NCBI GenBank assembly: GCA_048213135.1
Contig: PS015502.1
Coordinates: forward strand, 1 to 36,726
Source of the DNA: Reclinomonas americana ATCC 50394
Lineage: Eukaryota
Direction: 5' to 3'
DNA: 36,726 bases
Shown: positions 2,375 to 26,410 of the stretch, piece by piece
Position numbering within the stretch: the stretch's first letter is position 1
Layout of the letters: each line of letters starts with the position of its first letter
The notes under the pieces: model-generated
What the model was told of the DNA's origin: nothing
What the model saw: the letters and a program-made list of their open reading frames with translations, nothing else
Database searches by the model: none
Position numbers and translations under genes: made by a program

Positions 2375-2396
2375 ACGGTTACATTTATTATGCGCA

Positions 2397-3254
2397 TTAC
2401 TTTTTCGCGAGGACGAGGAACGTGGGAATCACGCCGACTCCCTTGCACTGCAGACGAGGTGTGGCGTTTGGGCACAGGATTAAGAAGAGATGGAGAGACA
2501 GGGAGTCGCAGCGCGCGCACTGACCTCGGCACTCGACGATTCGGTCTTGAAAAGACCGCGTGACCGCTGGTTGGTGGCCTCCGAAATCTGAATCGAGTTC
2601 GGCGGTGCCGTGCTGGCCATGCGCGAGGCGACATTGATTGTGTCTGTGCGAGGGACGAGTGAGAGAAAGTCACTTAGAGCGCCGTTGCGACACTATGGTG
2701 GTCGTCAGCTCACCGCCATACAGATCAAAGCTCTGTGTCAGCTGACCGACAATGCCAGCGGTACAAGGGCCCGAGTTGATTCCAGCGCGGAACTCGAGCT
2801 TGATGCGTCTCTATACATGCACACACATGTTACTACATCACGCGTGATGTTGTGGAAGAAAAGACAACTGCCTCACCCTCTCGCAGAACGATCTGATGGC
2901 CTCGAGGGCATGCAGTGCAAAGTCGGTCGCTGCAAACGCATGGTCGGGCCGTGGTCTGTACATTCCGCACACGACCATGTACGCGTGACCAATGGTCTTC
3001 ACCCGCTCCGCGTGCAACTTGCGGACGGTGGTGTCCAGCGTGGAAAAGAGTTCGCCAAACAATCGGATCTCTTCCTGCGCAGTCAGTGGGCCGGCGCCTG
3101 CGTCGGTACCGGTAGGAGTGCGTGAGCAACATGTGCGACTGCACAGGTGAAGACAATACGATGCTCAACCTTGTTCGCTGTCGATGCGCTCAACATCGCT
3201 GAGCTTGATGAAAACACAAGAGACTTCTGGGTGGAAGTCGACCAATGTGACGGT
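2397..3254 (-). other. Class III cyclase domain, C2-like half: keeps K, D, N, R and KG residues, lacks both metal-binding Asp
   Basis: EVSCVFIKLSD has K at the first-Asp position. VKTIGHAY has H (2985-2987) at the second-Asp position and keeps the substrate Lys (2997-2999). SFDLYG/DTINVASRM keeps D, N (2633-2635) and R (2621-2623). CKGVG matches the KGKG motif. Confidence 0.85.
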
Positions 3255-6200
3255 CTGGTGCGCGCGAGAGTCAGTGTCACTCGCAGCACATTGACGCGAC
3301 AAGTGCAGCAGTGCGTGCACGGCAGTGACGCAACGCCAGCATCGTCGGCGGATCTCTCCGATGTGAGTTTGCTCAGCACCGGTCGGGGGAATGCCGTGTC
3401 CAGCATCTTCTCAAACACCGTATTGACACCGCTGAGGACTTGCAAGTCGTCGACCTGCTTTGGTGGCTCGCCCACACGGCAGGAGTAGTATTTGACACTG
3501 TTGACCATGGTCTCGCGCATGCTGAACACACCGTCAAACTTGCTTCCATCTTTCCGTGTAACTGAGTACACAGCGGGCGCAGACGCGTGACCACCGACGC
3601 CCGATGAACGCGAGAAAGTGTTCACGAGGTCGCCAAATGTCGCCGTCTTGTTGTTCAGCGTGAGACGAAGCAGCTGGTCGATGGAAATCGCTGTATGCGG
3701 AAGGGCGATAAGTACACGTGCAAAACGAGACACGAAAATCAAGAGGATTGTGCTGTGCGCTCACCAGCTGACGCCAGCTCGTCTGCCGTGTACCCAAACA
3801 TCTATCACGTACCACACACGTTGTGAGAAACTGAGAATCACCATTGACCAAGAATAACACACGCACCCGCTGCACGGCAGGATTCACTTGCTGAATGACG
3901 CCGTTCCGATCACACCAAATGACGGCATCGGAAGAGGTGGCCAGCACGCCGTGCAACTCATCGTTCTTGCGTTCCATCTCGGATCTCGTCTGGCTCTCGT
4001 CCGACACGTCTGTGCGTGACAAGGTGCTTGCTTGTAAGGGGCAAGAGACAGAGTAGAGTGTGCGACTGATGCAAGGTGACGCAGACCTCGTACAAACGCG
4101 CAGTACAGTTGGCGTGTGTCGAGATCGACGCGAATGACGTGGAGATGAATACTGACAGCCTCTCCGGAACGCTTCTGTGCATACACTCCTCGGCCACTGT
4201 TTGTATGTGCGTGAGATGCACTGCTCTGTGAGTCTGCGGTCGAGAGTTATGACTTGCATGCATGAAAAGACGACAACGCACGCCACTGCCAGGGCCGACT
4301 TGGAGGCGTCCTGTTGGTTCATGCCGCGCACATAGTCATCGTGCCGCTCCTTGTGCGGCTCTGGAACAAACATCTGGCGCCAACTGTGAGCTAGAGAAGA
4401 ACAAAAGGTGCACGCACTTGCACAACTCGCGCAGAAGACGTACCCGAACATTCTGCCCGATCACTGCCGCCCGGTCATTGCCGTAACCGAGCAGTCGCAG
4501 GAGCGAAACATTGATATCCTCGATGATGCCGGCCGTGTCGGTGACCACAAAGCCTGTGAATGGTTCACAAGCAGGATAAAATGAATACCGCATTGGTTAC
4601 CCCGGGCATGTATACTTGTACGCAACCATCGTGCATGGAATTGAAAATGTACAACAACTGCACCGCAATAGTGTGGAAAGTGATGAGATGCGATAATGAG
4701 ACGGACACCAGCTACAGAAGACCAGACAAAACCTTCTCGCGCTGCTCCTGGAGACACCTTTCACGTTCCTTGTCCTCCGACACATCGTTGATGAAGCAGG
4801 AGAAGAATCGTCGTGCGGCAATGCGCCCCTCGGCCAGCGTGACAGTGACGGGCACACCTGAACCGTCGCGATGCACAGCCTGGATGTACACGAATGGTGA
4901 ACGGTGAGTTATCATTGATCGTCGCAGCACTAAAGGATTGTGCGGGTGACTGCGGAGGACGTAACGACGCTTTCGATCGTGCGCCCAATGATTCGCGAGG
5001 TGCCGGGTGGTTGCAACAGGTATCTGGCAATCAGCTGATCGTGCCTCTCCCTGCACGATGGGATTGGTGTAATGTCGACAAGCAGGCCCTCACAGACAGA
5101 CTACTGACTGACCGTACTTCGGCAGGCACAATCATCTTGATGTTGGAACCAAGTGCGTCCTCGGCCGGGTAGCCCAGCATTCGTGTGAACGACTTGTTGA
5201 CCATCTCGATGAGCCTGCGCGTCAAAGTCAACTACTTAGCCGCCGCACAAGCCACACACTCTCTTTCTCATGCAAGCAACATCTACAACACTAACCCCTT
5301 GTCGTTGGTGATGATCACGGCACGGTCCGTGGTCTGCAGAATGGTGCGGAATTTCTCGCTGTTCTCCTTCATCTTCTTGCTGAGGTCAGCAGCGGAGCCA
5401 AGCATGCTCCCGGCAAAGAGGAACGACTGCAGTCCTTCGTCGCTGTTGATCACCCCAACAGGAATGAAGAGAGCGAGGTGCTTGAGGTAGCGTGTGTTGG
5501 CATCAGCCGTCAGCAACAGCGGTCGAATGTAGAACACCAGCAACAGAACGATGGCGGCCAGGGCGATGCCGAAGAGCGCCTGCAGAATCATATTCTGCCG
5601 TGCGAGATACGACGAGAAAGCTGACCGCAGTATCTACAGGTCGACAACGCACACACAGATGAACACGAGGACACGTGAAGCAAGCGTACTCACTCACTCC
5701 CACCCACACGCACCGCATTGCTCTGGACAAAGTAATAGTCGAGGTAAGCGCGGGCAGAGAGCATGATGCTGAGTTGCTCCTGATCAAGAGCTGCGGATGC
5801 TCCATACGACTGCACGAGTACACTGGCGGCGTCGAGAGCTCGGATGAACTGCGACAGAGCGAGACCCGTGAGGAGGAGGAGGAGGAGGGTGACCTGTGAA
5901 ACGAAGAACCACACTCACCACCGTATTGTACGGCCAGCACATCAGACCAATCTGCCAGCTGCTGGTGCCACTCACACTCGGCTCACACCGATCGTCGTAT
6001 AGGAGGCTGTTTTGGCGTTCGTTGGCCGACGAGTCCCAAATCATCTCCGTGATGGTCGCCGCGGAGTCGGCTGTTGTTGCAGCCCAGGCTAGACGAGCCT
6101 TACTGACAGATGCCTGCAACGTTTCCAACAACAACCGCGAATCGCTAACACCAGAGCCACTGACGAGCTCGGCGGCGGCCAAAGTCGCCGTCTCAAAGTC

Positions 6201-9200
6201 TGCCACTCGGTCCTGAGAGTTCTTCACCACCGCCGCAAACACACTGCTCTGGGTGCTGGTGTTGAGGGACACGACTCTGTGGTGCGCGACGAGTGTGAGA
6301 GAGGTTCGGAGGAAGCGCTCGGCACAACAACAAGTGTGCTGCGTAACTGCATGATGCACAGCAACACGATGATGATGATGGTGAAAACAGCCACCCGGAA
6401 CCCGATGTTGCCGAGGAACTGCCAGTCGGTGCGCACGCACTGCGAAGGCCCGTATCTTCGCTTTGCAACCACCTGCGGCGCGTAGCCCTACACACCGCCA
6501 ATGTCAACGGGTTGCTGTCGACATTGCACAACTAACTACAAGTGACAGCAATGAAACGCACCTCGCGTTCCTGCTCCGTCCGTGCCATGAACGAAAGGAA
6601 CCTCTCTCGACACTGAAAGTACACCTCCTGTGCCGTCTTACGGGCAAGCGCCTCAAACGACTGCACCGCGCCCCTCAAGTCGGCAGTCAACGATCGCTCA
6701 ATCAGAACAATGACAACAGCGGCCACGACAGCCACGCATCTGCCAGAGGCATTTCAGCCAATGTATAACAACGATCAAGCCTCACATGCAACTCACCCGA
6801 CGAGAACGGCCAAGACAATGGCAGCCTCCAGTCGAAAGCTTCGATTCGTGCTGTCGAGTCGCGCACGGTGCTCATCACGCAGTGCATCCAGCGCGTCATC
6901 GACCCACAGCAGAGCATTCTTCAGCATAAAGTACGGGTTGTTTTTCATGGCCCCGCTGAGCAGTGTCGTGTCTTGCTTTGCGTACTCCTGTGAGGGAGTG
7001 ATAGAAAGTAAAGTCAGAAATGCACACACGTGACATGACCGTCCATGTACAAACGAAAACTAATGGCCGCACCGATGCAAGATCGCTGGTGGCAGCCAGC
7101 ACGTCGGCCAGCGGCAGGGTGCTTTCTACGGACGCCAGCTTGCCGGCCGCCACATCCACAAGCCAGTTGATGGAGACGCTTTGCGACATGGTATTCAGTT
7201 GCTCACTGCGTTGTAGGGTGTAAGGTCAGCACCGGTCCGCACACCACAAAGGATGACAGGCGGATTCGGAGGCACGCAACTCTTGATACTTGAGTAATTC
7301 GATGGCATCGCTTCGGGCGGCCGTGGCGTTACCTTGGAGGTAATTGGTGAGGTCGCTTACTTGCCGCTGCAGGTCGGCACCGGACGAAGTCGTTGTTGCC
7401 AGTCGTCGAAGGCGCGATGCCGAATAGACGCTGCGCATGAATGCAACCCTGCATGGAAACACGTGCTGTCTAGTGAGCGACAACTGCGATGTGCCCGACT
7501 GCAGTAGTGGGGGCGACGAAACTTGAGGTGATTGACGGCAAAGGAGGTGACCAGCTGCCGGTTCACGGCCGAGTTGGTTGTCGTGGCAAGCACGAAGCTG
7601 GCAACAACGGTTGCGACGAAGACAATGCCGATGCTGACCAGCAATAACATGGCCTGACGCGTGTGTGGATTCTGTGCAGCCTTGTTCAGGGAACACAGAG
7701 GACAGGCATCTAGCAGTACGAATTCTCGTCAAACCATCTCCGAGAGAACGACCTGACGGAGCATAGAAGAATACATGCTGTCCATCGACATGGTGGAGGA
7801 TCCTCGCGAGCTGGACGACATTCCGCTGCTGCTGCCGGTGGGTGAGCTGTCGGCGTCACTTGTGGTGTCTTTTGCGGCCATGCTGGTGTCGACTGGAGTA
7901 ACACTCGGCTTCGTTGCCTCTGCAGTGGACGAAACGACTCGTGAGCTCAAAGAAATGCAGACGAAAGAGGAACGACTGGCAGTGACGAAGCTCTCCACCA
8001 GTCGTCGGTGAGAGCCAGCCAGCTGCGGACCGAATAGACAGGATCAGCAAAAAACATAAATAAGAGCGGCAGAGCGAAGCAGGAGACCTTTCGTGTGCTG
8101 TTGGATCGAGGCGCCAGCTCACTCGAAGTAGCTTGCATCGGTACCACTTCGGTGGCGGTGGGTGCCTCATCCACATTCACGAAACCGATGCGTCGAGATT
8201 GCGCTCTCTTGACATCATGCCGTGGTGACCGACCGGCGGCGGCGAGGAACTTGCCAGGCACAGTGGCCATAGCGTGACGCCCTTCATCGTCGTCCTCCTC
8301 GTCGCCACAGTCGACCGCTGCACACTCTGCCTCGCTGCCAGTCTCGAACGGCCGCACTGCACCAACAGCGGGAGAGAGAGAGCGAGAGAGAGAGAGAGAA
8401 ATTAGTACGTGCAGGAAGAGCGACTGTGTAATGGCCCAGGACGCACCGTGATCTGTGTTCGGTGGTGGCGACCTGGCCACTGCCTTGACACGCACAAATC
8501 TACTTGGCGAGGCGACGGCACGTGTACGAGATGCCACCGTGTTTCCTTGGTCGGTGCTGTTACTTGAGGCGGACGACGACAACTGCGCAATGTCCACACG
8601 ACCAACACCACCGTGGTCGGTGGCGGCTCCTGCATCATGATCGGCTTCTGCCTGTTGTGGATCGTGTGCGTCGAACTTGGTCATAATGAAGTTGAGTTGC
8701 TGCAGGCGGTCGGCCATGTCCATCACGCGCTCGCTGGATGCGGCCTCTGCGTCGGCCGCAGATGTAGTCTGTTCTCGAGAAAGCTCGTCGGCGAGGTCGT
8801 CCAGTAGTGAGCCCGTGCGTCTATCGTTCAGGATCTCTGCAACAAACTTTGCAGCGCAAGGCCAGTCAGAGTGCACGAGTGAGCACCGCCGCCAACGGCA
8901 ACACGAAAAGAACAACAACATCGAGCCGGATACCTCCGCAAACATGGTCATTACTTGCCCGTCGTTGGGGTAGTCGCGCAAGAGGTCGCGGAACTGCTGC
9001 TCGCATTCATCCTGCTGCTCACGAATGTTGATGGGGATGGTAATGATCCGCTCATCGTGGCGGAACTCGCCGGCGAGGTGCTTCCAGAAGCTGACCAACA
9101 ACGCGTGTGTCTCGTACCACTTCAACCTGGCGGCGCGGATTCTACAAACGCCACTTCTGTGTCAGGAACAGTGCGGCGAAAACACGTCACACAAAGGCGC

Positions 9201-9694
9201 AAGTGACACACCTGATGGTCTTGTCGACACTCTCCTGACCACTGTCGACAAACATGCGGAGGAACGCAAAGTACTTGAGTCGCATGTCCAGCGGCAACTC
9301 CTGCTGGCGCTCTGCCAGCGCCGAGCCAATTGCGATGGCAGTGTCGCTGTCGATCTCGTAGTGCCACAAGTAGTGCGCGTACAGCAGACTGAGCACAGGC
9401 GACTGCGGGAGACACTCGCTGCCGAGATCGAAAATGTCTCGGGCCCGAGCCAGCGGATCCTGCGTGTGCGACGTCGGAATGCGAGCCACAAACTCCACAT
9501 CGTACGCGTTGGAGAAGAGGCCGTGGATACCGGCCGACATGTCGCTGGCATCGGAGGCCATTCCGTACCGACTTTGCGGACTCTGGAAACGCACGTGCGT
9601 CAGGAGGTGTGCGAAGAGGAGAGAGAGTGCACAGCACGGCACGGTGTATGTGTGTGTCTCTGTGTGCGTGTGTGTGCGTGTGGTGTGTGTGTGT

Positions 9695-9736
<42 letters not shown>

Positions 9737-11422
9737 TGTTTGTGAGGTGTGTTACCTGCAGCGTCGACTCGTTCCCCTGTCCACCACTGCGTAGCGAGTC
9801 GATAAACTGGTCCACCGCCTTCCCCAGCACCGCCAGTCGCCATCGTTGAAGCAGTAAACCGACGACGACAGCAATCGGCAAGCCAGCACCGAGAATGATG
9901 AGGGAGAGGAGTGTGCGGGTGAGCAGCTGGCTTGCACTTGGTGCCGTGGTCGCGGGGATCACAGAGACGGCCGCCCACAGGATGCATCCGACACCCACGT
10001 GCGACATGATGTTGGTGGAGTGTCGGTAGAAGGGCGAGAACCGGATGGCGAAAATGGTGTATGTGAGTGCCAGCATGGCCACACCCGCTGCTGCGTGCAC
10101 CACGCCAAGCCGCGCCGCAAAGAATGTATGCGTAATGCACAACATGATACGGCACACATTCAGGGAGGCCAAGAACCGGCCGGCCAGAGGGCCCGCCGTG
10201 AACGCTGGTGAGGTTGGCTCGAAATCCTGAGACAGCAAATTGGCCAGGGTGGTCACCACCCCCAAGAAGGTGACTGCCAGCACGCCCAGCGAGCCGAGGA
10301 GCATATTCGACGACTGCAGAGACAGCAGCAGCACACAGACTCAGTCAGCTACTCATCGGTTCGTTGATGCGGTAGATGATTTGCGATCCCCAAACCTTGC
10401 TGCACACAAGCGCAACACCGCCATCGGTGGTGCTCAAGTGCGTCATGTCGTCAAAGTTGCAGTGCAGAGGCCGCAGCAGTGCGAGACACACCGGCGTCAG
10501 CGCCACGGAACTCAGCAAATGCAACTGCATGCGCAGCGCGCGGACCAGCAGTGTCGACTCGGCTGTTGTCTCATCGTCGCTCACCGATGTTCCAGCCTTG
10601 CGAGTCGACGACGTGCGCACCTGCACGGAGACCTTCCGCAGACGACGAAAGGCCACCACAATCTGCCAGACGAGCGCCGCCACGTACGCCAGCACAAAGA
10701 CGGAGATGCTCTGCACGAAACCGAGCGAGACCGTCTGCAGTCATGTAGAGCAGTAAGGCATCGATCATCGCTACCACCAAATGCATCGCAAAGAACGAAC
10801 CCAGGGGACAACTTCGTTGGCAAGGAAGGCGTAGCGCAGGACGCGTGGAATCCACACCGACCAGCCGCCGGTATTCGACAAGTTACCGAGGCCGCCAGTC
10901 GAGAGCGGCGCAAACATCCACGGATCCAGCACCAGCATCAGGGTCTGGAAGAAGATGAACAGCGTGACAGCCATCTCGATCCACAGCGCCTGAAGAATAT
11001 TCAAGATTCACATTAGAGGAAACTAGTGGATTGCCTTTTTTGGCTTCTTCAAAACTAATTATTCTCTTCCCCCCCCCTGTTTTCTCATTCGCTGCACATT
11101 TTTTTGTGCGCCGTGTGTGCGAGACGTCTATCTCCCACCTCTTCTCCTGCACATCCTCCTCACTCCACCAAAGCAACAAGTGCGCAATGTCTCAAAGCAC
11201 TGTGCGCAACTTGGTACTCTCTGCTACTGCGACCTGTATATGTGGTGGTGGTGGTGCTAAACTCACCGAGCCTGTGGAGCTCGTCGTGCGTCGGAAGAGG
11301 GCAAACAGGAACTTGTCCATGTTGCCGGCCGCCTGCTGCTTGTTCACCGGCGATGCGTCATTCCAGCCACCGCCGCCACCAGCAATGGTGCTTTGACTCT
11401 GCGAGTCAGCCGGCGTGGCCAT
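2397..11422 (-). CDS. Large multi-pass membrane protein (TmcB-like N-terminus) with 3 PAS domains and a C-terminal C2-type class III cyclase domain; about 33 introns
   Basis: Spliced manually from MATPADSQ… (ATG 11422) to …CKGVGVIPTFLVLAKK-TAA (2397). Order: multiple TM helices, TPR-like helical region, further TM pairs, PAS (NIKMIVPAEVRERHDQLIARY; MFVPEPHKERHDDY), then cyclase motifs VKTIGHAYMVVCG, FRAGINSGPCTAGIVG, FDLYGDTINVASRM. Confidence 0.85.
9644..9745. repeat. Imperfect (TG)n/(CA)n microsatellite inside an intron of the first cyclase gene
   Basis: About 100 nt of near-pure TG dinucleotides between the donor GTAACA and the acceptor TTCCAG on the minus strand. Confidence 0.95.
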
Positions 11423-12051
11423 TGCTGTGCCAATCCAGTGCGTATGCGCAACGTGTGGTGTGCGAAAGAGGAGAAAAACACGGCTGAGAAGTCTCAATCT
11501 GCGCGCTCGCTTCTCTCTCGCCACAAAATGCAAAAACAATGAGTTTGTAGACGAGAACGTTTCCAGACCGTTGCGTATATATACTCTGCAGCGCGCGGAT
11601 TGGACGTGCACCATACTTTGAAACAACAGCCCCTGAGTAGCGTGCTGTGGAGAGTCGTGTGGCAGAGTACAGAAACCGGCTGCGATGATCGCCAGTTTGC
11701 GTCTCAGCTGCCGCACACGGTGGCGATGGCCACCATCCAATTCACGAGAAGGATGCCTTTCTAGACAATAACGCGGTTGTAATTGGCGCTTCCCCGTGGG
11801 ACGTGGCAGCAACGTGGAGCGCTCCCATGGTTCGGTGACCCGTCGCGACGCGCAGCTTTACAGCTTGCCATAGCGGAGTACGCACCCTCCTGTTTGGTCC
11901 GGAAACGCGCTTCCTTTTGGAAAACAAAAATTCTTTGTGTCATATCTGGATATCGAAAACAAAGGAACAAAGTCTGCCGTCTCTTGTCGTGCACCTTAGA
12001 CTGCGTTCACCATCCACAGCATTGTCATCAGTGAAAGTACAATTTTGTTCA

Positions 12052-15000
12052 TTATCGAGGCGACTGTCTCTCAGCATCGACCGCAGGCTCTGCTGCTGCC
12101 GCTGCTGCTGCTGCTGTTTCGGGCGTCTCCGAGAACCTCACCACCGATCCTTGCCTCCTGCTGTAATCCAAATTCGAAAATGAGCGCATCTGCGTCGGCA
12201 CTCGAATGAGTTGCGGTCGCTCCTCGCCGTCGTTCGGTGCCGCACCATCCGCACTGGCGGAGCTGTGTGCGACATCAGAGATGTGCTGGAGAGCGGCCAA
12301 GTTCGGGCGAGCCACACTCAAGCGTCGATCGGTGGAGACCACGCTGATGCGGCGGTTTGCCGGAGGCATTGCGGACAGCAGCGCTGGGGCGTCTGCTGCT
12401 GGTGCTGCCGCCGTCGCCCCTGTCGCCGACTCTACACCAGCGACAACTGCCGTTGCGACCGAGGTTGCCACGTTGCCGAGAGCGTACTTGCTGTTTGGGG
12501 GGGCGCTGGCGGCAACGAGGCTGGTGCCGGCCATTTTCGGGCAATCGTCGCGGAGCTCGAGTGGGAAGGCGTGTCCCAGCAGCGCTGTCACTTGACTGGA
12601 GACGTGCACGCGACCCGGCTTACTGAGTTCTTCCAGGTGGACGGCATTGTCGATCGCGTCCCCGTACAACTCAAACGTCAAGTTGTCGGTGCCGAGAACG
12701 CAGGTGGTGAGTGGTCCAGTGTGCACGCCGACCCTGATCTGGATGTTGTAGTTGTTGGCCTGCGCGCACACACATGATGGGGTGAGAATCGACACCGGGC
12801 AGAAAGAAGGCGCAGCTACAAGAGTACGTAACTTCGTTGAACTTGTGCAGCTCCGACATGACCTCCACGGCAAAGCCGACCACTGCCTTGACGTGCTTCT
12901 CCGGCTCAATGACCTCCTGCATGCCGCACACGGCGATGTAGGCGTCGCCAATGAGCTTGCACCGAATGAGTCCGTATTTGATGGCCACGCTGTCGAAAAT
13001 GTCAAACATGGCGGAGATGGTGGCGATGAGCGTGTCGGGCGACAGTTGCGAGCTCATGCGCGTAAAGTTGACAATGTCGCTCGCAAACACCGTCACACTT
13101 TCGTGCTCCTCGATGATCGGTTCCTTGGAGCCATTGCACTCCTGGAGAAGTGCACACAAACAGTTTAGTGTTGTTTACAGAGAACCACCGACCACAGAAA
13201 ACGATGCGCAACTCGGTCCATGATTTGCGCAAGCACGTACGGCGGGAAGGAGCAACGCAAAAGGTTGCGACTCGAAAGCCCACTCGCGGCCGCGTCCTCC
13301 AGCTGGCGCATCAGTGCCTCGGCATCCTCCACAAACGCCACAAAGATGCGACGACCGCCAACGCGGCCCTCCCGCACTTTTACGTTGGCGTAAAATCTGT
13401 CACCATTGGCTCTCCTGGCCGGCGTTCCGTAGGTGCCCTTGCCAATAATCTGACTCCTACCCGAGCGCAGGTACTCGGCAATGTAGCGATCGTGTGCCTC
13501 GCGATGTTGGTCGGTGCCAACCAGCTCCTTCACGTTCACGTGTCGCATCGATCCGGTTTCGTAGCCAAACTGCTCCTCGGCAGTTGAATTGGCCTCCTGG
13601 ATGATTCCATGGTCGTCGCACACTATAATACCATGGTCGTAATGCTTGATAATGGTGCTGAGTTCTTCGCCAATGCGCACAATCTCCGCCAACGCCTCTC
13701 GCTGCACGGTAAGATCTGCAGGAAGTATGAGTTCCTCACTTACAACACACAGAAAACAGCCATTGCTTTGGCACAGTCGCGTACCTCGCAAATAGGCAGC
13801 AAAGAATCGCGCTCGACCGTCGTTGCCGTCGACAACCGTCAGCTTCAAGTGGACGAGGCTGCCGTCTTTGCGCAGGCCCTGCACATTGCGGCCATTCTCC
13901 AACACTCCACCGTCTTCGCCTGTCTCCACCAGCCTCTGCAGGTACTCGTCGTGCCTGACCACAGTTTGTAAGCACTCACGAAAGCAGGCTTGTTGTATCG
14001 AGGAAGCCTGCACACTCACCGATCGCAGTGGGGTGCAGGCATCAACATGTTGACCTTTTGGCCCACCTACAAGACGGGAAATGTGCGATCAGCCAAGAGT
14101 GTATCACTCGCGCAAGCATGCATGCATTTGCATACCATCTCCTCTCGGCTGTACAGGAAGATCTTGGAGGCCGTCTCGTTGACATTGGTGATAACTCCGG
14201 TCACATCAATGATAACCAGAGCGTCCTTAGAGCCGTCAAGAATCCTCTGCGTGCGCTGCTCCTCGGCTGCGTAAGGCGAGTGAGTGATGGTGGCAAGTAG
14301 GATGCTCTCCACATGGAACGAAACTGCGTTGTTGTGCTTGTTGTGCCGACCTCTCCGACATGTCGTGCACAAAGGCCCTGTTAGTCAAGACACTGTGATG
14401 TGAGCAATGTGCACGCACACGACGCGGATCGGAGAGAATTGCGACAACGCACGCGAAGAATCGAGCGCTCTTCAGTCGAGCCTCGCTGACACTGACAATC
14501 ACAGGCCGCGTTGAACCATCCTTGCAAGTAAGGTCGCTCTGAATGCTGCGACCCACCAGACGCGAAGCGCCAGTGAGGACGTGATTGGCGATGAGCTGTA
14601 CACGCAAGAGAGTCAGTCGGCTGCAGTGGTCGGTGGTTTGCAGCACATCCGCCCACAAGTCACCTGGTCGTGGCGGTCGCGTACGTGTGCCGGTGTAAGA
14701 ATCTTTACGTTTTGCCCGACGAGCTCTGCGAGGCGAATATGATAAGTATGAAGACATGCAAAACGGAGAGGAGGGCGTGTGTTCGTACCAGTGTCGGAGA
14801 ATCCAGCCAGACGCGACATTGCAATGTTGGTCATTTGAATGATTCCGAGCTCGTTGCACAGCAAGACACCATCGGAAGATGACTGCAACACAGAAAACAG
14901 CTTCTCCTCGGCTTCTTTCATGGAGTCGTTGAGGCGCGCCTCGGAAATCTCTTGGCCTGCGCGCAGGCAACAAAGCTGTGAGCCAGATCAAAAGACTTCG

Positions 15001-18000
15001 GCAAAGGGAAAGAGAGTGTCACGCACCGCGCACAACGAAATCGTGAATAACGGTCACGGAGGTGACGACATCGGGCGCCAAGTGGCTCAACATCTTGCGA
15101 ACTTGTTCCGACTGAAGAAGAGGCGATTGGAAGTATTGAGTACCGTGGACAGGTGAACAGTCAGCAAAGTTTTTCGTATGACGACACCTTGCGATAAAAG
15201 TGGCCGAATGACGGAAGCACCAAGAGGAATGCGACAGCAGCGAGCGCAATCAGCTGTGCGCGGAAGTCTGTGAGCGACAGCTCGCGAGTGCACTCACAAG
15301 CGATACATGACTCACGCCAAGGATGAACAGAGCCTCGACCAACAGCAGGCTGGTGGAGATGGCCGACTCCAACTCCCGTTGGTAGTAGTCCGTGGAGGTG
15401 GCAAAGGAAGCGCCCAGCACGGATGATGCCGTCTCCAGAAACATGGCGTTCGAGTTTGAGATCGTCAATCGCGAAGTGCTACTGAGTGTGGCTGCTGCCG
15501 ACTGAAGAATGCCAAACGCTTGGGTGAGCTGCATTGTATGCGTGGCGGAAGAGAGGCAGTGAGACAAAACTAAAGTGGGGACAACAGAGCGGAACGCCAC
15601 AAACCACAGTGTTTGTCGCAGCGCAAGAAATAAAGTCGGTGATCGCCTGCTTGTCAGAGGTCACCGTACCGGCAGCCGACACTGTATTGGCGCACTGCGT
15701 GGCGTACAGCAGTTCCTGCTGATCCACAGAATTGAACGCACGCCGACTGCTCGGCGTGGAGGAGTCGACGAATCGGAGCGAGTTGTGTGAGGTCGCCATC
15801 TGTGGTGCCGAGCATGAGCAAGTGCAACGACGCCGGCATAAATCGACAAAGTGTACGCAACGGCTTGTAAAGACGACACCCACAGTGTTTGTATCTCACT
15901 GCTGCCGAATAGATTTTCGTTCTCAAACAGACCTATCAACAGCAAATAGAGTGCGTGAGAAGCAGGACGATGACACACACACAACAGCACATGTACTCGC
16001 CAGTGGCCTGAGAAAAGTCCGTAGAAGCCACTTGTGTGCAGCGACGAGCCTCGCAGAACAAGGCCAGCATGTTGTACAAATTCGAGAGGCGCACGCTGGA
16101 CGTGTTCATCTCGAAGGCCAGAGATGTCGAGCGGGTGTGCAGGCTTGACGCGGCCGCCCACCACACGCCAAATGTTCCGCAGAAGATCAGCATGGCAATG
16201 AAAATGGTGAACAGCATCTGGCGTCGCAAGGGAATCCGGTTGGGTGCAGCCTCGGAAGACTGCAACGCCTCCTGCTCCAACGTCGAAACGAAGAACGTTA
16301 GCGTCACGTACAGAGAGCAAAGGGACACATACTTATAAGTTGCGGGTGCTTGCCTCACCTCGTTGTTGCCTGCAACTGTGGAGCTTTCGGCGGCAGCGTC
16401 CGACGAGTACGAAGTCATGCTGCCGTAGGCGCGGAACAGCGCTTTGGCTGCCGTCTTCGGCACCACCAGGAAGAGGCGAAGTGTGAATGCCTGTCGCTTG
16501 CGATGATGCAAGAAGGCCGGAACGAAGACACACAGCCAGAAGAACACTCCGACGCCGAGACAGACTGCGAGCGCCAGAGTGGTGACCTGGTAGTGGTCGG
16601 CGAGGTTGGTTTGCTGAAGTCCTTCAAAGAACGCGTTCAGTGCGTCCATCGCCGGCAGCAGCTGCAGGGGACCGTTGCGCACGACATACATGAACTGAGG
16701 CGACTTGCGCAAGGCATCGCGACTCGTCCACGTTGTCGACGCAATGGACTGCCGGTCGTAGCAAGTTAGAAGTCAGACATCACAAGCACACACATACAGC
16801 AACGCCGCGCACGCTCACACACCTTGGCATCTTCAAACAGATTCAACGCCAAATCCTTGAAGAGCACTGTCATTTGCCTCATTTGCGGTGTTTGCCCATT
16901 CGCAGCCGTGTAATAGACTTCGACGGTACTGCAGCAGAGGACGCAGGTACGCACACATTGGTAAGCACATTTCGTGTGGTTTCATACATACAGATTACCA
17001 GGCGGCACGTAACAGAGAACGCGTCAAAATCGAGTCGAATTGGTTTGTGTCGACGAAAAGCGACTCGAAGTGCGCAGCTGCTTCCTTTGCTTGCGCCAGC
17101 ATGCTGGCCTGTAACGTGGCAATGCGGGCAGAGCTGAAGTCGCCCGCTGTAAGACCCAGCTCTTGAGACAGCAGTGTTGCTTTGTAGGTCAGCATCGCAA
17201 CCGATTCCCTGTGCAACGGAGAATTAATACACTGTGGGAGGTGGAAGTGGGAGAGCGCTCTCTTTGCTTACCTTACGGTCGTCGTCTTGTCCCACCACTG
17301 GAGGTCCGTCATCTCATCTCCTTCATTCACCACGAGGATCGCAAATGTGACGAGCACGGCACTCAGTAGCACCAGCAGCATGCAAAAGACAACAAACAGC
17401 AATCCGCGGTGCGGTCTACCGAGCCAATTAGTACACTTCCAAAGAGCCAGCAAGACGCGCGGTGCATATTCACGACACTCAACTTGCCGGCACTGACTTC
17501 GAGCTCGTCCTCTGGTACCGTCGAGTTGCGTTGCATGTCGGTATCCTTGGTCGCCTTGGGCTTCAGTCGCGAGACCAACTTTCGTCCGCTGGGATTGGCG
17601 CGCACTGCCAACAGCAGAAGCCATGTCAGTGTCACGCTGTGTTATCTCGTGTGAAAACAATACAGACAAACGCACAGCGATTAGACTTTTCCGCAGTGGT
17701 AGCCGTTGTCTCTGTGGCCTCATCTCCGTCGTCTTCGCCGGCAGGTACCGCATGCGGCATTTGCGGCGTCTCTTGAAGCCAGTTCGTAATTCGGTCCAGT
17801 TTCTCTTCGCAAGCAGTGAGCAAAGGGCGATAAAAGCCAAACGATGGACGAAATGAGTGCAAGAATACCTGCATCGATGGTTGCCTCCGCTCCTTCGTCG
17901 CTGACGTCGTCAAATGCGCCACCTAATGGTGACTACAGGTGAGCACTGCGCACCAGACGACAGTTGTAGCACGATAGCATGTCACCTTGGAGCCCCTGCT

Positions 18001-20821
18001 CAAACTGTGGGTAGTACTCTTCGTCGGCTACCACAGCGCTGTGATTCGACCGACTGCTGATCAGGTACCGATCTCCGTGCCCGGTGTGGTCGGCCATGTC
18101 AGCATCGCTCACTGGCACGACTTTGCCAGAGACGGCCGCACCCTTGTGGGTTCGATTGTCACGTGTGTCGGTGGTGCGGGTAGCATGCACTTGCTCTTGT
18201 TGCACTCGTTTCGGATCGGCATGTCGCAGCAGGCGAGCGCGCAAGTCAAACAGGCGGCGCCGGCGAGCATTCGTGTCGGCGGCAGTGCCTCCATGCGCAG
18301 CTCCGCCGCTGGCAGTGGGCCCCACCTTACCGTCGCCATCAGCCGTTATCGCGTACTGATCTCTCGAGTCAACGCGGCCCGACGCGTCCTCTGCGGCGTT
18401 GGCTTGACGCTGCAGCTCGTCAGCCTCGTGTGGCATCCGACGGAAGGTGCGCAAAAACTGCAATGCGCGCATGCACTTGCGTGTGAGAAAGCAGTAGACG
18501 CCCGAGCCTGCCCAACCCGAGCATCGAACCTCTGAATACAACCGAAGAAGGCTGCGGTTGGTCGGGTATTCGACCACAAGGCGCTCGAACAGGCGACTGA
18601 GTTTCGTCTCCACCTCCTCGATGGTATCGATCAGAGGTGGCAGAACTTCCACGTTCACGTCTTCTTGCAGCACGTTTTTCCAGAATTTGCGATGCATATT
18701 TCTGCAGCACCAAGCGGGCACAGATGATTGACGGTGTCAGTGAGGAATGTAGTGCGCCAGCAATAAATGATGTGTACCGACACTTACCGCATGCGTGTCA
18801 TGAGCTGACGGATTTGTGTCATTTGTCGGCGCAGCGTGTCATCCTCTTCGACATCGGCGATCTTCTTGACGACAAGGAAGACAATGAATTGCAGATCTAT
18901 TGGCTGTTGATGCGGTTCGCCGGCCTCTGCTCGGTTGCGCAGAGTGAGTGCGCAGGGTACGAGAGGGAGAGGTGTCGGGTAAATGGAGGCAACGCACCCT
19001 TGATGACCTTGTACACTTGCCGAGAATCGACACCGTGCTGCATCATGAAAATGGCGTGGAACAAACGCAGGTGCTTGCTCTCGGGGAACATGAGAATGCC
19101 TGCGTATGGCGACGGAGAGACACAGTGTGGTGCTGAGTATGGAACATCTCGAAGCCGAGCAGACCAGATGTGCCTCACCATACTCAAATACGGCGTTCGC
19201 CCAGGCGGCGTATGCCGGTCCGAGATATGCCGTGAGAACACAAGGGCGAGTGAGGATCTCGGCCTCGTATGCGCTCTGGAAAATGTCGTCGTCCATTTGG
19301 CCCTGCACACACACACACAAACACGTGCGTGAGCACACAATAGGGTGGACAGAGAGTAAGTACAAATGCATTTTCCCTCCAACACACCGCCTCCAGCAGC
19401 GGCCCACTCGCCACAATCTTGCTGAAAAACCGTGAATGCAAATGCGCCACTCGGCTTGTCACTGTTCGTGCTCCAATAAATAGCGCCAGAGCACCGACTA
19501 CGACGAACACAATGCCGGCAGCAATGGATGTACTCTCGCCACCAATCGATACTGCAGGGCGATCGAGGAAAAAGTCAGCAAGAGCTGTGTCGGTCGTCAA
19601 GGTCAGTAACCGTACAAGTTGAAACAATGCTCACCAATGGCGGCGGCACCGACTGCACTGGCGCTAAGAAGCAGCCAGGCACACCAAAACGTATTGGCCG
19701 ACACCTTGTAGAAGGGCAGTCGATGCGCTGAGTGCCAAATGCACACACAGAGCAGGACTGAGGCAAGCACCGAGGCAAGGGGTGCCACCAGGGTGGAGGT
19801 GAAGTTGGGTACGAAAATGAGCACTGTCTTCAGCAGAGATGCGCCAAAAAAGGCGCGGCCCGCTTGTGGACCGGCGGCGAACCCGTGCGCCATATATCGG
19901 TACTCGACGGCACTACATGCAGGCGTGTATCAGCATCACGAATATGCACGCTGACACGCAATGCGACGCAACAATGCAGAGCTTGCCAAAGCAATAGCGG
20001 TGTACGCCAAGGCGATTATGGTACCGAGTACACCCATGATGAGTGTGGGTAGAGTGGCGCACGCTTCCGTTTCGCCACCACTGTGGCCGAGGCGCACTAT
20101 CGTGGACGACGAGTAGTCGCAGTGCACGGGTGCGATGAGAGCAAGGCACACCGGCACATGCAACACGCTGAAGGTGAGCGGCGCATGCAGCTGGAGATAT
20201 CGTGTTGCCAGTTGTCCTGCGTGGCACGCCTGCATCCACTTCGGAAGAGCAGAGCGCGAGCTGGCCATGGAAATCACCAGCGCAATGACTGTTGGTGCAC
20301 CGTAGAGCGCGGCGACGACGAACGCCACCAAGCCCGAAAGTGCCGAGTGGCTGATCAGTGGGACGAAGGAGGCTGGTATGTAGAGCACTCGCACCACGAT
20401 GCCGGGAATGCCACTCTGTGCCCGAGCGAGACAACAGAGTGAGGTTCGGGAACACAGAGAGAGGGAAAATGGGAGGGTGTTTGGCGGTGGTGACGCACCC
20501 AGGCGAGGTAAGGCTGCAGGGCCAGACCAAGGATCTGGAGACTCATGATGAAGACCAGCAGTTTTTCGACCCACGCGCCTCGGCGATGACCGTGGGTGAG
20601 TCGTGCGCAGCCTTCACCAAAGAGCGGAAACAGCATCTCTTGCATCGTCTGCAAGCGTGACTCATCGGCGCCGGCCACGCCGCTGGTGGCCGTGGAGAGC
20701 GCGGCACTGTGGGCATGGATAGAAAGTGTCATGTTAGAGCTGTGTGACGACAGGAGAGAGGGAGGGATGGCAGAGTGCACCTGCTTGCGCCATCCTTGAC
20801 ACTACTGGCGGCAACAGACAT
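12052..20821 (-). CDS. Paralogous large multi-pass membrane protein (TmcB-like N-terminus) with 3 FixL-like PAS domains and a C1-type class III cyclase domain; about 32 introns
   Basis: Spliced from MSVAASSVKDGASS… (ATG 20821) to …AERQSPR-TAA (12052). Same architecture as the neighbour: TM block, TPR-like segment (AVFEYGILMFPESKHLRLFHAIF; KFWKNVL…LVVEYPTNRSLLRLYSEFL), TM pairs, PAS x3, then cyclase VTVFASDIVNFTRMS, CKLIGDAYIAVCG, IRVGVHTGP. Confidence 0.85.
12530..13141 (-). other. Class III cyclase domain, C1-like half: both metal-binding Asp present, transition-state Asn/Arg lost
   Basis: ASDIVNF (Asp 13076-13078) and IGDAY (Asp 12944-12946) are intact. FELYGDAIDNAVHLEE has D and H where N and R normally sit, and there is no KGKG motif. 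Confidence 0.85.
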
Positions 20822-21312
20822 TTGATTGGATTCCGAGTCGCAGCGGGAGCGAGACGATGTTCACACTGTGTGGCGCCACGCAAAGTCGCCTCTCTCGCCA
20901 CTCACTACCACTTGTGTGTCAACGTCCTCGCACAATTGGAACAGAAAAGTCACACAATGGTTTTCTTTGTCTCGCACAATTGTTCAAAATCAACTGCAAC
21001 GGTCGACGACCGCAGCGTGATGTTTCCTTTTTTGGCGCGGAATGACCGCGAATCCACAAGCATGACCCGTGCGGCGCAAGAGACTACAGTGGCAGCGACG
21101 GAAGGGTAGGGGGTTTACCTTTTTTTTTTTTTTCACTTGGACGCGGTTGACCTCGCATCTTCTTTGCGAGTTGGAATCTGTTCGCGATCGGTTTCTCGAA
21201 TTCCGTGCAAACTGACGCACTGTAAACGCTCTCTTTCGTCGTCACGGTGTAGAGTGTCGCAGACGGCAGGACGATTGGAATGCATCTCGTCGTCGTGTCG
21301 CAGCAATACTCA

Positions 21313-23424
21313 TTAATCGACTTCAATATCAACGTGCAAGTGTAACGTGCCAGTGTCCTCGCACAGCCACACGCGTGGATCGGAGGCGCTGCGGTCAGCC
21401 GGTACAGGGTCAATGTACAGATCGAGACCTGAAGCCACAGGCGCCAATGAAGCATCCCACGCGGCCGCCAACCGGCGAGCACACTCACGAGCCTGCAGCA
21501 ATTTTCTTTGTAAAACAACTAATTGCAACGACTTTCTTCTGTTTCTGTGCGCGTGTGTAAACGAAGCGCACCTGTGACACCGTCACCGTGGGGTCGAAGT
21601 GGACTAGGCGGACGCCGCGCAGCTTGATTCGACACTCGTTGCAGATGGCGACCATGTCCTTGTTCCTTTGTGCGGCGGTCTAACATTGGCGGACAAGTTG
21701 GTGGTGGTGGCAAACGCGCGAGCTCGATCGTAACACGTACCTTTTGCAGGGCGACACCGCGTGCACCCAGCGTGCGTATTCGGTAGCTGACCTCCTCGGC
21801 AGTGCTAGACTCGTTCACGTACAAGAAGCCGTGTACCGGATGCACGGGTGATTCGTGAGCTTCACGGCCCGTCGTGACAACCACGGACAGGAACGACCGA
21901 TCTTCCGACGAGGTGCACTGGTGGATGTTTCGCTTTCCGGTGCGGAACACGTGTGGCACGGCAGTCATCCGATCGAGGAACGCGAGGTAACTGCATGCAT
22001 CAGAGACAGAGTCAGCAAGTCTTGCGCAGCCTCGACGCACGACACGCGCGCAGCAGTCCAACCTGGGCGATGTGGTGTGGTCAAACACCTCGGAGAACAC
22101 GGCGCCCACATCCATGCTGTGCACGGCCAGCTTTTCTTTTTCACGCGCAGACTCGTACACGAGTCGTCTGCACATGCACACACCCACGATGAGTGCGCTC
22201 GAATGGAATCGGGCAAGACTCCCAAGACGCAACAGCCGATGACCGGCCGCCACGTCCACTTGCAAGAGCACTTCATACCACGACTCGCTGGCCTCCTCCG
22301 TGTTAAGAACCACGCGGCCGGTGGCATCCAGCCCGCTTGGTCTCTTCCGAGAGAAACACAGCCGCAGTCCACTCATCGACAACGATCGACCAGCGGCTGT
22401 GCTGCTCTTCGCTTTCAGCTCCGCAATGAGCGTGTGGCTGATTTGCGCCTGCCGTCTCACGTCGCTCTCGTCTTCAAAGTGCACGTTTCGGAACGCCCAC
22501 TCGTGCGTCAGCACGTGCTGCACGCTAATGAGACAACACTGATTGATAGTCACGCAGCGTGAACAAAAGACGTACGCAACTCGGTTCCAGTGAAACGCTC
22601 GATCGGCCTGCAATCGCTCCTCCTGACGCAGCCGAATAAGGTCGACGTGCTGCGCCACAAATCGACGCAGCGTTCCGGCACGACCTAGACTCGGATCATC
22701 ACGCGACAAGCCGAAATCCGAGTCCGACTCGCTCTGCAGCAACATTGACACACGTATACACGCACAGAGAGAGTAACACGCGCGCGTACCAGATCGAGAG
22801 CATCGGTGGGCAGGCCAAACGCCTCAAACACCGACAGCAGATTGCGCTGGAATTTGTTGAGCTTGACGGGCGGTGGATCTGTCGGCGCATGCACATGCCG
22901 CAAGCGAATGGCGACCCGCTGCAGCTCATGTCTGGCGACAGAGAGAGCGAGAAGGACAGAGAGAGAGAGAGAGTGAAGCAGATGAGTTCTCTGCCGCACC
23001 TCGATCGCACTCCACACACATACACACACACACCTCTGTATGTCAGCACTCTTCTTATCCGTCGGCTTCACAAAGAACTCCAGCTCGTGATTGGTGCGAT
23101 CGTCGGGCTCATTCGCCGACACCGACTGCATATACGCCTGCAACTTTGCAAACGACGTCTCATTCGTCTCCTGCACCTCTCCAAAATGAGCGGCAACATC
23201 GCCATACTCACTGCGATACACACAGAAACCTTCTCGTGCGGGAAATGCGCGGAGAACAGGTCGGGGTGAACGCGCATGTAGATCTTGCGCAAGTGTGAGC
23301 GCAGTGAGTGTGACTCGTCGGCTGTCTTTGATGATGTTGTTGTCGTGGATACGCATCGATGTGGCCGCACAGCTCGAGGAAGCGTCGAGTGGAATGCACC
23401 AATGAGCCTTCTCAGGATGATCAT
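21313..23424 (-). CDS. TCAIM: TCAIM-like (T-cell activation inhibitor, mitochondrial; DUF4460/DUF4461) protein, multi-exon
   Basis: Basic/hydroxylated N-terminal presequence (MIILRRLIGAFHSTLPRAVR), then LRKIYMRVHPDLFSAHFPHEK|ETNETSFAKLQAY matching the DUF4460 Y..VHPD.F…NE.S pattern. Last exon ends …LHVDIEVD-TAA at 21313. Confidence 0.75.
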
Positions 23425-23611
23425 TCGAGACAGCGACGACAAAAGCGCAGCGTCCTGTGAAGCTCACATTGTGTGCGATCGTCGTCAATCGTGCGCAGCG
23501 TGTGTGTGCGTGTGTCTCTTTCTCTGTCTTTGTGTGTGTTCTCACCTGTGCGCAGTCTGTGTGTGTGTGTGTGTGTGCCCAGGCATCTATCAAGCAAGAA
23601 AACCAGGCGTC

Positions 23612-26121: not shown

Positions 26122-26410
26122 GCGCGTTACTCTTATCCACGTCCCACAACCCATGTAATTTTTTGAATGGAATGTGTTGATACCCCGTTCACTTGGTGTT
26201 GCGTTCACAATCCACACTGGGAGGCGAGCAGCACTGAGAGAGGAGAGAAGAACACATTCGACTGCGACAGAGTTGTTTTTCTGGTTGCGGTCCTGCCGAT
26301 ACGAGCAGCCTTGGTTGGCTTGTTCGAAGGAGAAGGACGGGCTGGATCAGAGACAAAAGACAAGGAAAGGTACAGAGAAATGTCCAGAGGCTGGGCGCCA
26401 TGTGCGCGTC

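Follow-up and report, generated by a model that had tools for sequence, protein, structure and literature searches.

Class III nucleotidyl cyclases act as dimers, and their asymmetric forms, which combine an active site with a regulatory pseudo-site, underlie mammalian cyclic AMP (cAMP) and nitric oxide (NO)/cyclic GMP signalling. Reconstructions of how symmetric homodimers gave rise to this asymmetry usually rely on ancient fusions, and in soluble guanylyl cyclase (sGC) the catalytic residues are shared out reciprocally between the alpha and beta subunits. Here I describe two adjacent genes in a stretch of DNA of 36,726 nt (the window; G+C content 0.54-0.60), which I call gene A and gene B. 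Both are encoded on the minus strand, and their cyclase domains carry complementary sets of active-site residues.

In the mammalian-type transmembrane adenylyl cyclases (tmACs), as portrayed in PMC4174876, the C1 domain holds two metal-binding Asp, while the Lys, Asp, Asn and Arg sit in the C2 domain, and each enzyme has a single active site beside a degenerate pseudo-site. sGC is described as a heterodimeric enzyme built from homologous subunits that come from two genes, and its beta homodimer as inactive (PMC3591389). For C. elegans, ODR-1 and DAF-11 are presented as an obligate heterodimeric membrane guanylyl cyclase, in which each monomer gives essential residues to a single site (PMC5225109). 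The chytrid protein NeoR forms obligate heterodimers with RGC1 or RGC2, and the clustered genes are reported to be paralogs from gene duplication (PMC10622942, PMC8815786). In these two accounts no catalytic residue is missing from RGC1 or RGC2, and the RgRGC1 cyclase shows activity on its own when isolated (PMC8815786, PMC10622942), so that, as far as these accounts go, heterodimerisation in that system is not explained by reciprocal loss. The principle of a cyclase heterodimer with split residues and the existence of linked heterodimer gene pairs are both already described, and the novelty that an earlier note had claimed for the present locus was overrated, as complementary heterodimers from separate genes and linked pairs have been described and bacterial linked pairs were found here as well.

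Both genes are assigned to the class III nucleotidyl cyclases by their matches to the catalytic domain (PF00211). Gene B, the upstream gene (12052..20732), would encode a C1-like subunit, and gene A, the downstream gene (2397..11422), a C2-like subunit. Read in the order metal Asp 1, metal Asp 2, substrate Lys, substrate Asp, Asn and Arg, the signature of gene B is D D K E D H and that of gene A is K H K D N R. Gene B has the metal Asp without the Asn and Arg, as in a C1-type domain; gene A shows the reverse, together with the substrate-specifying pair, as in a C2-type domain. The composite site that combines the Asp pair of B with the Lys, Asp, Asn and Arg of A is complete (6/6), and the mirror site has lost 5/6. 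Under a simple model of my own, five losses placed randomly over the 12 positions of a dimer would all hit one site with P = 0.015. The secondary motifs are split likewise, with DIVNFT in gene B versus KLSDVER in gene A, and with CKGVG in gene A at a position where gene B is unaligned. Going by these residues, it is fairly probable that the tandem genes encode a B/A heterodimeric cyclase with a single ATP-specific site, which would make cAMP only as a pair.

Independent phmmer alignments to solved chains of AC5, AC8, AC9, the C2 domain of AC2 and rhodopsin-guanylyl cyclase (rhodopsin-GC) support both signatures. All matches among the PDB chains are cyclases, except one chance row with an E value of 3.1. 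The earlier note had proposed an alignment to AC5 C1 and AC2 C2 as a check, and the residue assignments hold in these phmmer alignments. The observation of that note is confirmed in its essentials, and its interpretation has support from the sequence.

For the profile comparison, the cyclase domains were spliced in silico from 3254-3170, 3097-2877, 2810-2714, 2643-2525 and 2447-2397 for gene A, and from 13141-12833 and 12759-12052 for gene B. The cyclase profile consisted of 183 domains, cut from the matches of a representative search with gene B exon 12833-13141. The spliced domain of gene B scores 193.4 bits over profile positions 9-196, and that of gene A 172.4 bits over positions 10-212. 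As both domains match the profile from end to end, the set of exons is complete and calls for no alternative exon. When the same profile was run against all open reading frames (ORFs) of the six frames, the only cyclase domains in the window were the two of genes A and B, in five ORF pieces.

A six-frame motif search recovered 7/10 query strings as contiguous peptides, all on the minus strand. In gene B these are ASDIVNF (13064-13084), IGDAY (12938-12952) and GDAIDNAVHLEE (12628-12663); in gene A they are FIKLSD (3195-3212), VKTIG (2988-3002), IGHAY (2979-2993) and CKGVG (2433-2447). The string FDLYGDTINVASRM is not contiguous in the DNA, but is made up of FDLYG at the end of one exon (2714) and DTINVASRM at the start of the next (2643), with a GT-AG intron of 70 nt between them. 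The comparison strings ANHME and KGKG were, as expected, not found in the six-frame search.

The cyclase domain of gene B spans two exons. The first (12833..13141, minus strand; Pfam Guanylate_cyc, 61.8 bits) contains the codons of metal Asp 1 (13076-13078), the substrate Lys (12956-12958) and metal Asp 2 (12944-12946), and its DIVNFT phosphate loop is intact. Its phmmer matches are structures of rhodopsin-GC and of AC5 C1 (E 4e-16 to 2e-10), and in these alignments IGDAY and ASDIVNF fall on the metal Asp of both. The last exon (12052..12759, minus strand; Pfam 45 bits) holds the second half of the domain and a low-complexity tail. It has a Glu at the position of the substrate Asp (12670-12672), an Asp in place of the Asn (12649-12651) and a His in place of the Arg (12637-12639). 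When ...AIDNAVHLEE of gene B is set against ...TVNIASRMDT of AC9 C2 by phmmer, D stands opposite N and H opposite R; the second half of the domain as such aligns to both C1 and C2 of AC9. The profile alignment of gene B stops before the KGKG region, leaving the gene without an aligned KGKG. Profile and phmmer alignments, with the codons checked, thus bear out the earlier description of gene B as a domain that keeps both metal Asp, has D and H in place of Asn and Arg, and is without KGKG.

In gene A the domain is distributed over five exons, all on the minus strand. The first (3170..3254), whose acceptor and donor were checked by hand, covers the region of strand beta-1. It has a Lys at the position of metal 1 (codon 3204-3206), on which the MAFFT and profile alignments concur, and its phosphate loop is degenerate (KLSDVER). 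A reading shifted by three residues, in which the LSD of KLSDVERI would keep metal Asp 1, was rejected, since MAFFT and the profile hidden Markov model both place the Lys there, the latter with high posterior probability. The second exon (2877..3097; Pfam 50.1 bits) contains the substrate Lys (2997-2999) and a His at metal 2 (2985-2987); KTIGHAY aligns by phmmer to GD(C/S)Y of AC8, AC5 and mycobacterial cyclases, with H opposite the metal Asp. The third (2714..2810) supplies the substrate Asp of FDLYG (codon 2724-2726) and aligns to the C2 domains of AC9, AC5 and AC2, with 13.1 bits for AC9 C2 versus 4.3 bits for AC9 C1 in phmmer. The fourth (2525..2643; Pfam 22.4 bits) contributes the Asn (2633-2635) and the Arg (2621-2623) within TINVASRM, which phmmer aligns to TVNTASRM of rhodopsin-GC domains and to AC2 C2. 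The last (2397..2447) carries CKGVG, with a KGKG-type lysine aligned at the 'kgkg' positions of the profile, and the stop codon. The claim that gene A is without the metal Asp pair and retains the Lys, Asp, Asn, Arg and KG was confirmed in the same way as for gene B, by both kinds of alignment and at the level of codons.

The complementary substitutions could be read as accumulated damage in decaying duplicates, with both genes being pseudogenes. The searches that were made returned no orthologs showing constraint, and three micro-exons in the gene models (4, 10 and 12 nt) could mask frameshifts. However, the cyclase domains are intact across two exons in gene B and five in gene A, with canonical splice sites, no stops and 172-193 bits, and one composite site retains all six residues. 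In addition, coding potential is positive across about 6 kb of modelled coding sequence per gene, and a B-like fragment from another source (P0010) has the unusual ELYG of gene B. I regard decay as very improbable.

The two genes share more than the cyclase domain. In a Pfam scan of 122 of the 139 minus-strand ORF pieces of at least 45 aa (the shortest were left out), each gene matches TPR_TmcB, PAS and Guanylate_cyc, with Guanylate_cyc at the 3' end. TPR_TmcB (PF25474) is above its cut-off of 27 in both, with 34.7 bits for the ORF piece at 17936..18736 in gene B and 29.7 bits for the piece at 7950..9161 in gene A, where the domain itself lies at about 8934-9110 (all on the minus strand). Gene B has two PAS domains above the cut-off of 22.6 (PF00989, 36.0 and 27.6 bits; 13168..14384, minus strand) and a third, weak one at 14616-14987 (minus strand). 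The corresponding part of gene A is a PAS-like region (4339..5231, minus strand) with sub-threshold PAS_9 matches of 23.7 and 19.1 bits in fragments split by introns; the PAS exons of gene A are short, and the region aligns with the PAS region of gene B in a blastp comparison of the modelled proteins. A Kyte-Doolittle scan of the models, which is crude, gives about 12 hydrophobic 19-mers per protein, of which about six precede the TPR domain and four or five follow it. Directly before the cyclase domain, the profile alignment shows that the linker motif LL..P..V is kept in both proteins, which makes signalling from PAS to cyclase through a two-helix linker plausible for both arms.

Over their length the modelled proteins are collinear, with a blastp E value of 1e-51 over about 730 C-terminal residues at 24% identity, and 1e-9 for the TPR region. 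Judged by this similarity, genes A and B are old paralogs with one architecture and not recent copies. The earlier note had described two adjacent, co-oriented genes with one architecture without giving a strand; both indeed lie on the minus strand and have the same domain order.

Given the residues, the architecture, the paralogy and the linkage seen at the locus, I propose a mechanism in which dimerisation, activity, substrate and co-expression are predictions. Proteins A and B would be paralogous multi-pass membrane proteins, each with hydrophobic spans at the N-terminus, followed by a TPR_TmcB domain, a second set of spans, PAS domains, a short helical linker motif and the cyclase domain. 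From the upstream protein B would come the metal-binding Asp pair and the intact phosphate loop; the downstream protein A would provide the Lys and Asp that specify adenine, the Asn and Arg of the transition state, and the KG lysine. With their catalytic domains paired head to tail, B and A would form a single complete site, specific for ATP, and a degenerate pseudo-site that might bind a regulator. Little or no activity is expected of either homodimer, as B/B would be without the Asn and Arg and A/A without the metal ligands. Both subunits would then be required for the synthesis of cAMP, which could combine signals from two different PAS/membrane sensor modules.

The gene models behind these proteins were built with a splice-aware dynamic-programming model trained on the window itself. 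Beyond the C-terminal third they are only approximate, and the few long 'introns' in them are probably errors; the model of gene A was corrected by hand at one junction. The ORF listing shows no long ORF in the region of the two genes and no ORF of 9 kb, and when the DNA is read by eye, short GT-AG introns are seen to split both cyclase domains, which points to eukaryotic, intron-dense DNA. All splice junctions in the cyclase regions, read by hand, are GT-AG and consistent in frame. Introns are numerous and short in both genes (median 77 nt, maximum 286, n = 60 modelled introns), with a density of about one per 300 nt among the modelled introns of 2397-21063. In the same set, donor sites follow a weak, unusual consensus, GT[G/T]N[G/C][T/G], with GTGCGT, GTTGCG and GTTACG among them. 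Such unusual donors and very short, dense introns could help to place the organism.

The model of gene B (12052..20732) comprises about 29 exons and about 2100 aa, and that of gene A (2397..11422) about 33 exons and about 2030 aa. Gene A starts with an ATG at 11422 and ends with a TAA at 2397-2399; gene B ends with a TAA at 12052-12054, and its most plausible start is the ATG at 20732, the first ATG of the N-terminal ORF, from where its N-terminus aligns with that of gene A. An extra 5' exon in the model of gene B (21063-20954) is doubtful. Of the gene ends given in the earlier note, 2397 and 12052 correspond to stop codons and 11422 to an ATG; position 20821 is not an ATG, and the first one occurs at 20732. 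Both genes end in TAATG (2380-2400 and 12030-12055, minus strand), with an AT-richer stretch containing TGTA within about 20 nt, and an AATAAA is also present near the 3' end of gene A (2380-2400, minus strand). The TAATG with the TGTA-containing stretch may be a shared 3'-end signal.

A different view of the gene structure is that A and B are one gene, in which a long intron removes the stop codon of B and a single chain of about 4000 aa is made. Its order would be [membrane-TPR-PAS-C1]-[membrane-TPR-PAS-C2], a giant pseudoheterodimer in the style of a tmAC. The succession of a C1-like and a C2-like domain on one strand is that of tmACs, and many of the best database matches are two-domain single chains. 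Read-through candidates were scored directly by their junction signals, as the dynamic-programming model would pick any feasible junction and is unsuitable for this purpose. A good donor at 12141, GTGAGG, whose score of 8.4 ranks near the 75th percentile of the model donors, can be joined in frame to good acceptors at 11645 or 11399, with summed signal scores of 16.0 and 16.8, respectively, compared to a median of 14.8 for the model introns, and the frame of gene A is open upstream to 11857. However, the resulting intron would be 497 or 743 nt long, beyond the longest of the 60 modelled introns. Furthermore, the spacer between the stop codon of B and the ATG of A (11423..12051, minus strand, 629 nt) scores negative for coding in every frame and shows a local dip in G+C content to 0.41; a TATA-like TATATATA is found about 155 nt upstream of the ATG of gene A; and this ATG is at a position homologous to the start of gene B. 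The frame of gene B itself closes in an in-frame TAA after a long low-complexity tail and is followed by AT-richer sequence. The spacer looks intergenic, and I consider a single fused gene improbable. If the genes were fused, the genetics would be altered, with one chain instead of two, and the catalytic logic would be unchanged.

Taken as two genes, the pair resembles the tmACs in the split of the residues, in the predicted ATP substrate (Lys/Asp) and in the C1-like-first order. The alignments run in the same direction, with the second half of the gene A domain opposite C2 domains and that of the gene B domain opposite both C1 and C2 of AC9. In contrast to the tmACs, the two halves have separate stop codons and are separated by the non-coding spacer, each subunit has TPR_TmcB and PAS modules where tmACs have a bare anchor of six transmembrane spans, and no close sequence kinship was found, the best database identities being 36-49%.

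With sGC the pair has in common that homologous subunits are encoded by two separate genes. However, sGC is soluble, regulated by haem and NO, and GTP-specific, while the A/B pair is predicted to be membrane-bound and ATP-specific. HNOB and HNOBA had no match among the 122 ORF pieces of the Pfam scan, and at the substrate positions A has K/D and B has K/E, where sGC would have Glu/Cys. ODR-1/DAF-11 differs in its animal receptor-guanylyl cyclase architecture, its GTP specificity and its unrelated sensors, and the two are not described there as linked genes (PMC5225109).

The solved rhodopsin-GC domains are the best PDB matches to the first cyclase exon of gene B and to exons 3 and 4 of gene A, whereas the best match to gene A exon 2 is AC8. 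Beyond the cyclase domain the likeness to the chytrid genes ends, as no rhodopsin family matched any of the 122 ORF pieces scanned with Pfam. As described, NeoR is encoded on the opposite strand, and the chytrid enzymes have rhodopsin sensors and use GTP (PMC10622942, PMC8815786); in the A/B pair, by contrast, the losses are reciprocal, the genes are arranged head-to-tail and the sensors are of the PAS and TmcB-like kinds.

What appears to be new in the A/B pair is the two-gene arrangement with predicted ATP specificity, the clean reciprocal loss in both genes and the head-to-tail linkage. The combination of a TmcB-like membrane module with a PAS array is an architecture that is unseen in any other cyclase examined, and TPR_TmcB and PAS were absent from all 29 cyclase matches scanned with Pfam. 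A literature search, with most subscription journals outside its range, gave no description of a TmcB-PAS cyclase, a two-gene complementary adenylyl cyclase or a spirochaete pair. For the more ambitious proposal, an independently evolved, two-gene, obligate heterodimeric membrane adenylyl cyclase with its own TmcB-like multi-pass module and PAS array in each subunit, in a eukaryote that is poorly sampled, I put the chances at about even.

Linked pairs with comparable losses are also found in bacteria. Starting from a single-domain C1-like match (P0110), two contigs from spirochaete metagenome-assembled genomes, L001 (1559-5135) and L002 (5986-9353), were seen to contain adjacent, co-oriented cyclase paralogs that are 31-35% identical. 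On L001, where the ORFs overlap by 8 nt, the upstream signature is D D K D N A and the downstream one S N K D N R; on L002 they are D D K D D K and - N K D N R, respectively. As in B and A, the upstream gene keeps the metal Asp and loses the Arg, and the downstream gene loses the metal Asp and keeps K D N R. Unlike A and B, the spirochaete genes are bacterial, intron-less and short (376-785 aa). The pair is present in both spirochaete loci with enough flanking sequence; a third locus (L003), a contig of 2.4 kb, has a canonical gene. These linked reciprocal pairs strengthen a functional reading of A and B and, at the same time, lower the claim of uniqueness. The searches for relatives of A and B themselves returned no ortholog of either gene.

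These loci bear on another explanation, in which one or both domains are dead pseudo-cyclases with a role in dimerisation or regulation, or pair with subunits encoded elsewhere in the genome. Each domain alone is indeed without essential residues, the paralogs are old (24% identity) and are not sisters in a domain tree, and single-domain sequences of C1-like or C2-like type are common among the database matches. However, the losses in A and B are exactly reciprocal and all fall in one pseudo-site, with the other site keeping all six residues, and reciprocal partners are linked in the spirochaete loci too, as are the heterodimer partners in the described chytrid NeoR/RGC clusters. I consider dead domains or distant partners unlikely, although less so than a fused gene.

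The representative search with gene B exon 12833-13141 returned 11966 matches at E <= 1e-3, but none reached 1e-30. Identity to the query is 24-49% among the best full proteins; the best full-length ones are two-domain cyclases (24-36%), including fusions of P4-ATPase with guanylyl cyclase, and receptor-type guanylyl cyclases. In the collections searched, close kinship is limited to two B-like fragments, P0010 and P0112, each a singleton on a short contig (555 and 1128 nt). Over 111 aa, P0010 has 55% identity to gene B; it shares the unusual ELYG and crosses the position of the gene B intron without interruption. The two fragments indicate that related organisms exist and are barely sampled. 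The other searches gave little. No homologous protein was found for the 404-aa ORF of gene A (7950-9161) in a search among longer proteins. In near-length searches, whose length window excluded proteins of about 2000 aa, the second cyclase half of gene B had no relative at E <= 1e-5 and gene A exon 2877-3095 had no candidate. Two metagenome scans, one with a B-type alignment and one with a gene A exon, found no relative, and the Atlas matches were TPR_TmcB look-alikes only, with scores below 0.9, to be taken as a lead.

Reciprocal signatures are found in 31 of the 41 two-domain matches in which both domains could be scored; the order is C2-like to C1-like in 27 and C1-like to C2-like, as in the present locus, in four. 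Among the 101 matches with one scored domain, 20 are C1-like and 22 C2-like, many of these matches being two-domain proteins of which the other domain was filtered out. Several matches with a single cyclase domain, such as P0046, P0061, P0133 and P0138, keep the metal Asp pair and are without the Asn and/or Arg (DDKDDK, DDKDKQ). Single-domain cyclases with half a site may be widespread and have unrecognised partners.

In a FastTree phylogeny of 185 domains, the C1-like domains of P0078 and P0044 cluster with gene B (support 0.86 and 0.96), and the canonical domain of P0106 with gene A (0.82). Given the long branches, this placement does not overturn the whole-length paralogy. The pair may go back to a tandem duplication with subfunctionalisation or to the fission of a two-domain gene; alternatively, like-degenerate domains may attract each other in the tree. 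The independent subfunctionalisation that the earlier note had suggested remains plausible because the paralogy is collinear over the whole length; the separate placement of A and B in the domain tree keeps it from being proven.

Several of these observations weigh against the proposed heterodimer. The splicing, the co-expression and the status as two genes are all modelled, and the three micro-exons may hide errors of the model or real defects. Gene B keeps its own substrate Lys, and its His and Asp may retain some function, so that a B homodimer could be weakly active. The database and metagenome searches yielded no ortholog of A or B in which the degenerate residues are conserved, and the non-sister position of the two domains in the tree has to be counted here as well.

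Of the neighbouring features, all on the minus strand unless stated otherwise, the gene next upstream of B (21522-23656) has weak matches to DUF4461 and DUF4460, with 21.2 to 25.9 bits around or below the cut-off. Two ORF pieces at 26208-27394 match the H-type lectin domain (24.0 and 29.1 bits, cut-off 24), and an ORF piece at 33792-34508 matches Fe-S_biosyn, of the IscA type (27.9 bits, cut-off 26.3). A match to CYAA_C, the C-terminal domain of yeast adenylate cyclase, on the plus strand at 24340-24711 (E 0.00099, 19.8 bits, cut-off 22) is probably due to chance, as the scan with the cyclase profile gives it no support.

A linked pair with clean reciprocal losses would be a tractable natural case of active-site subfunctionalisation. 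If the sensor arms of A and B answer to different signals, the pair could serve as a two-input signalling module, and if the B/A heterodimer is real, the synthesis of cAMP would be a natural AND-gate over two different sensor inputs. The bacterial pairs suggest that the phenomenon is broader than the animal and fungal cases described so far. Taken together with the spirochaete pairs, a confirmed A/B enzyme would show that asymmetric cyclases have arisen repeatedly, in bacteria as well as in eukaryotes, from tandem duplicates that lost active-site residues in a reciprocal manner.

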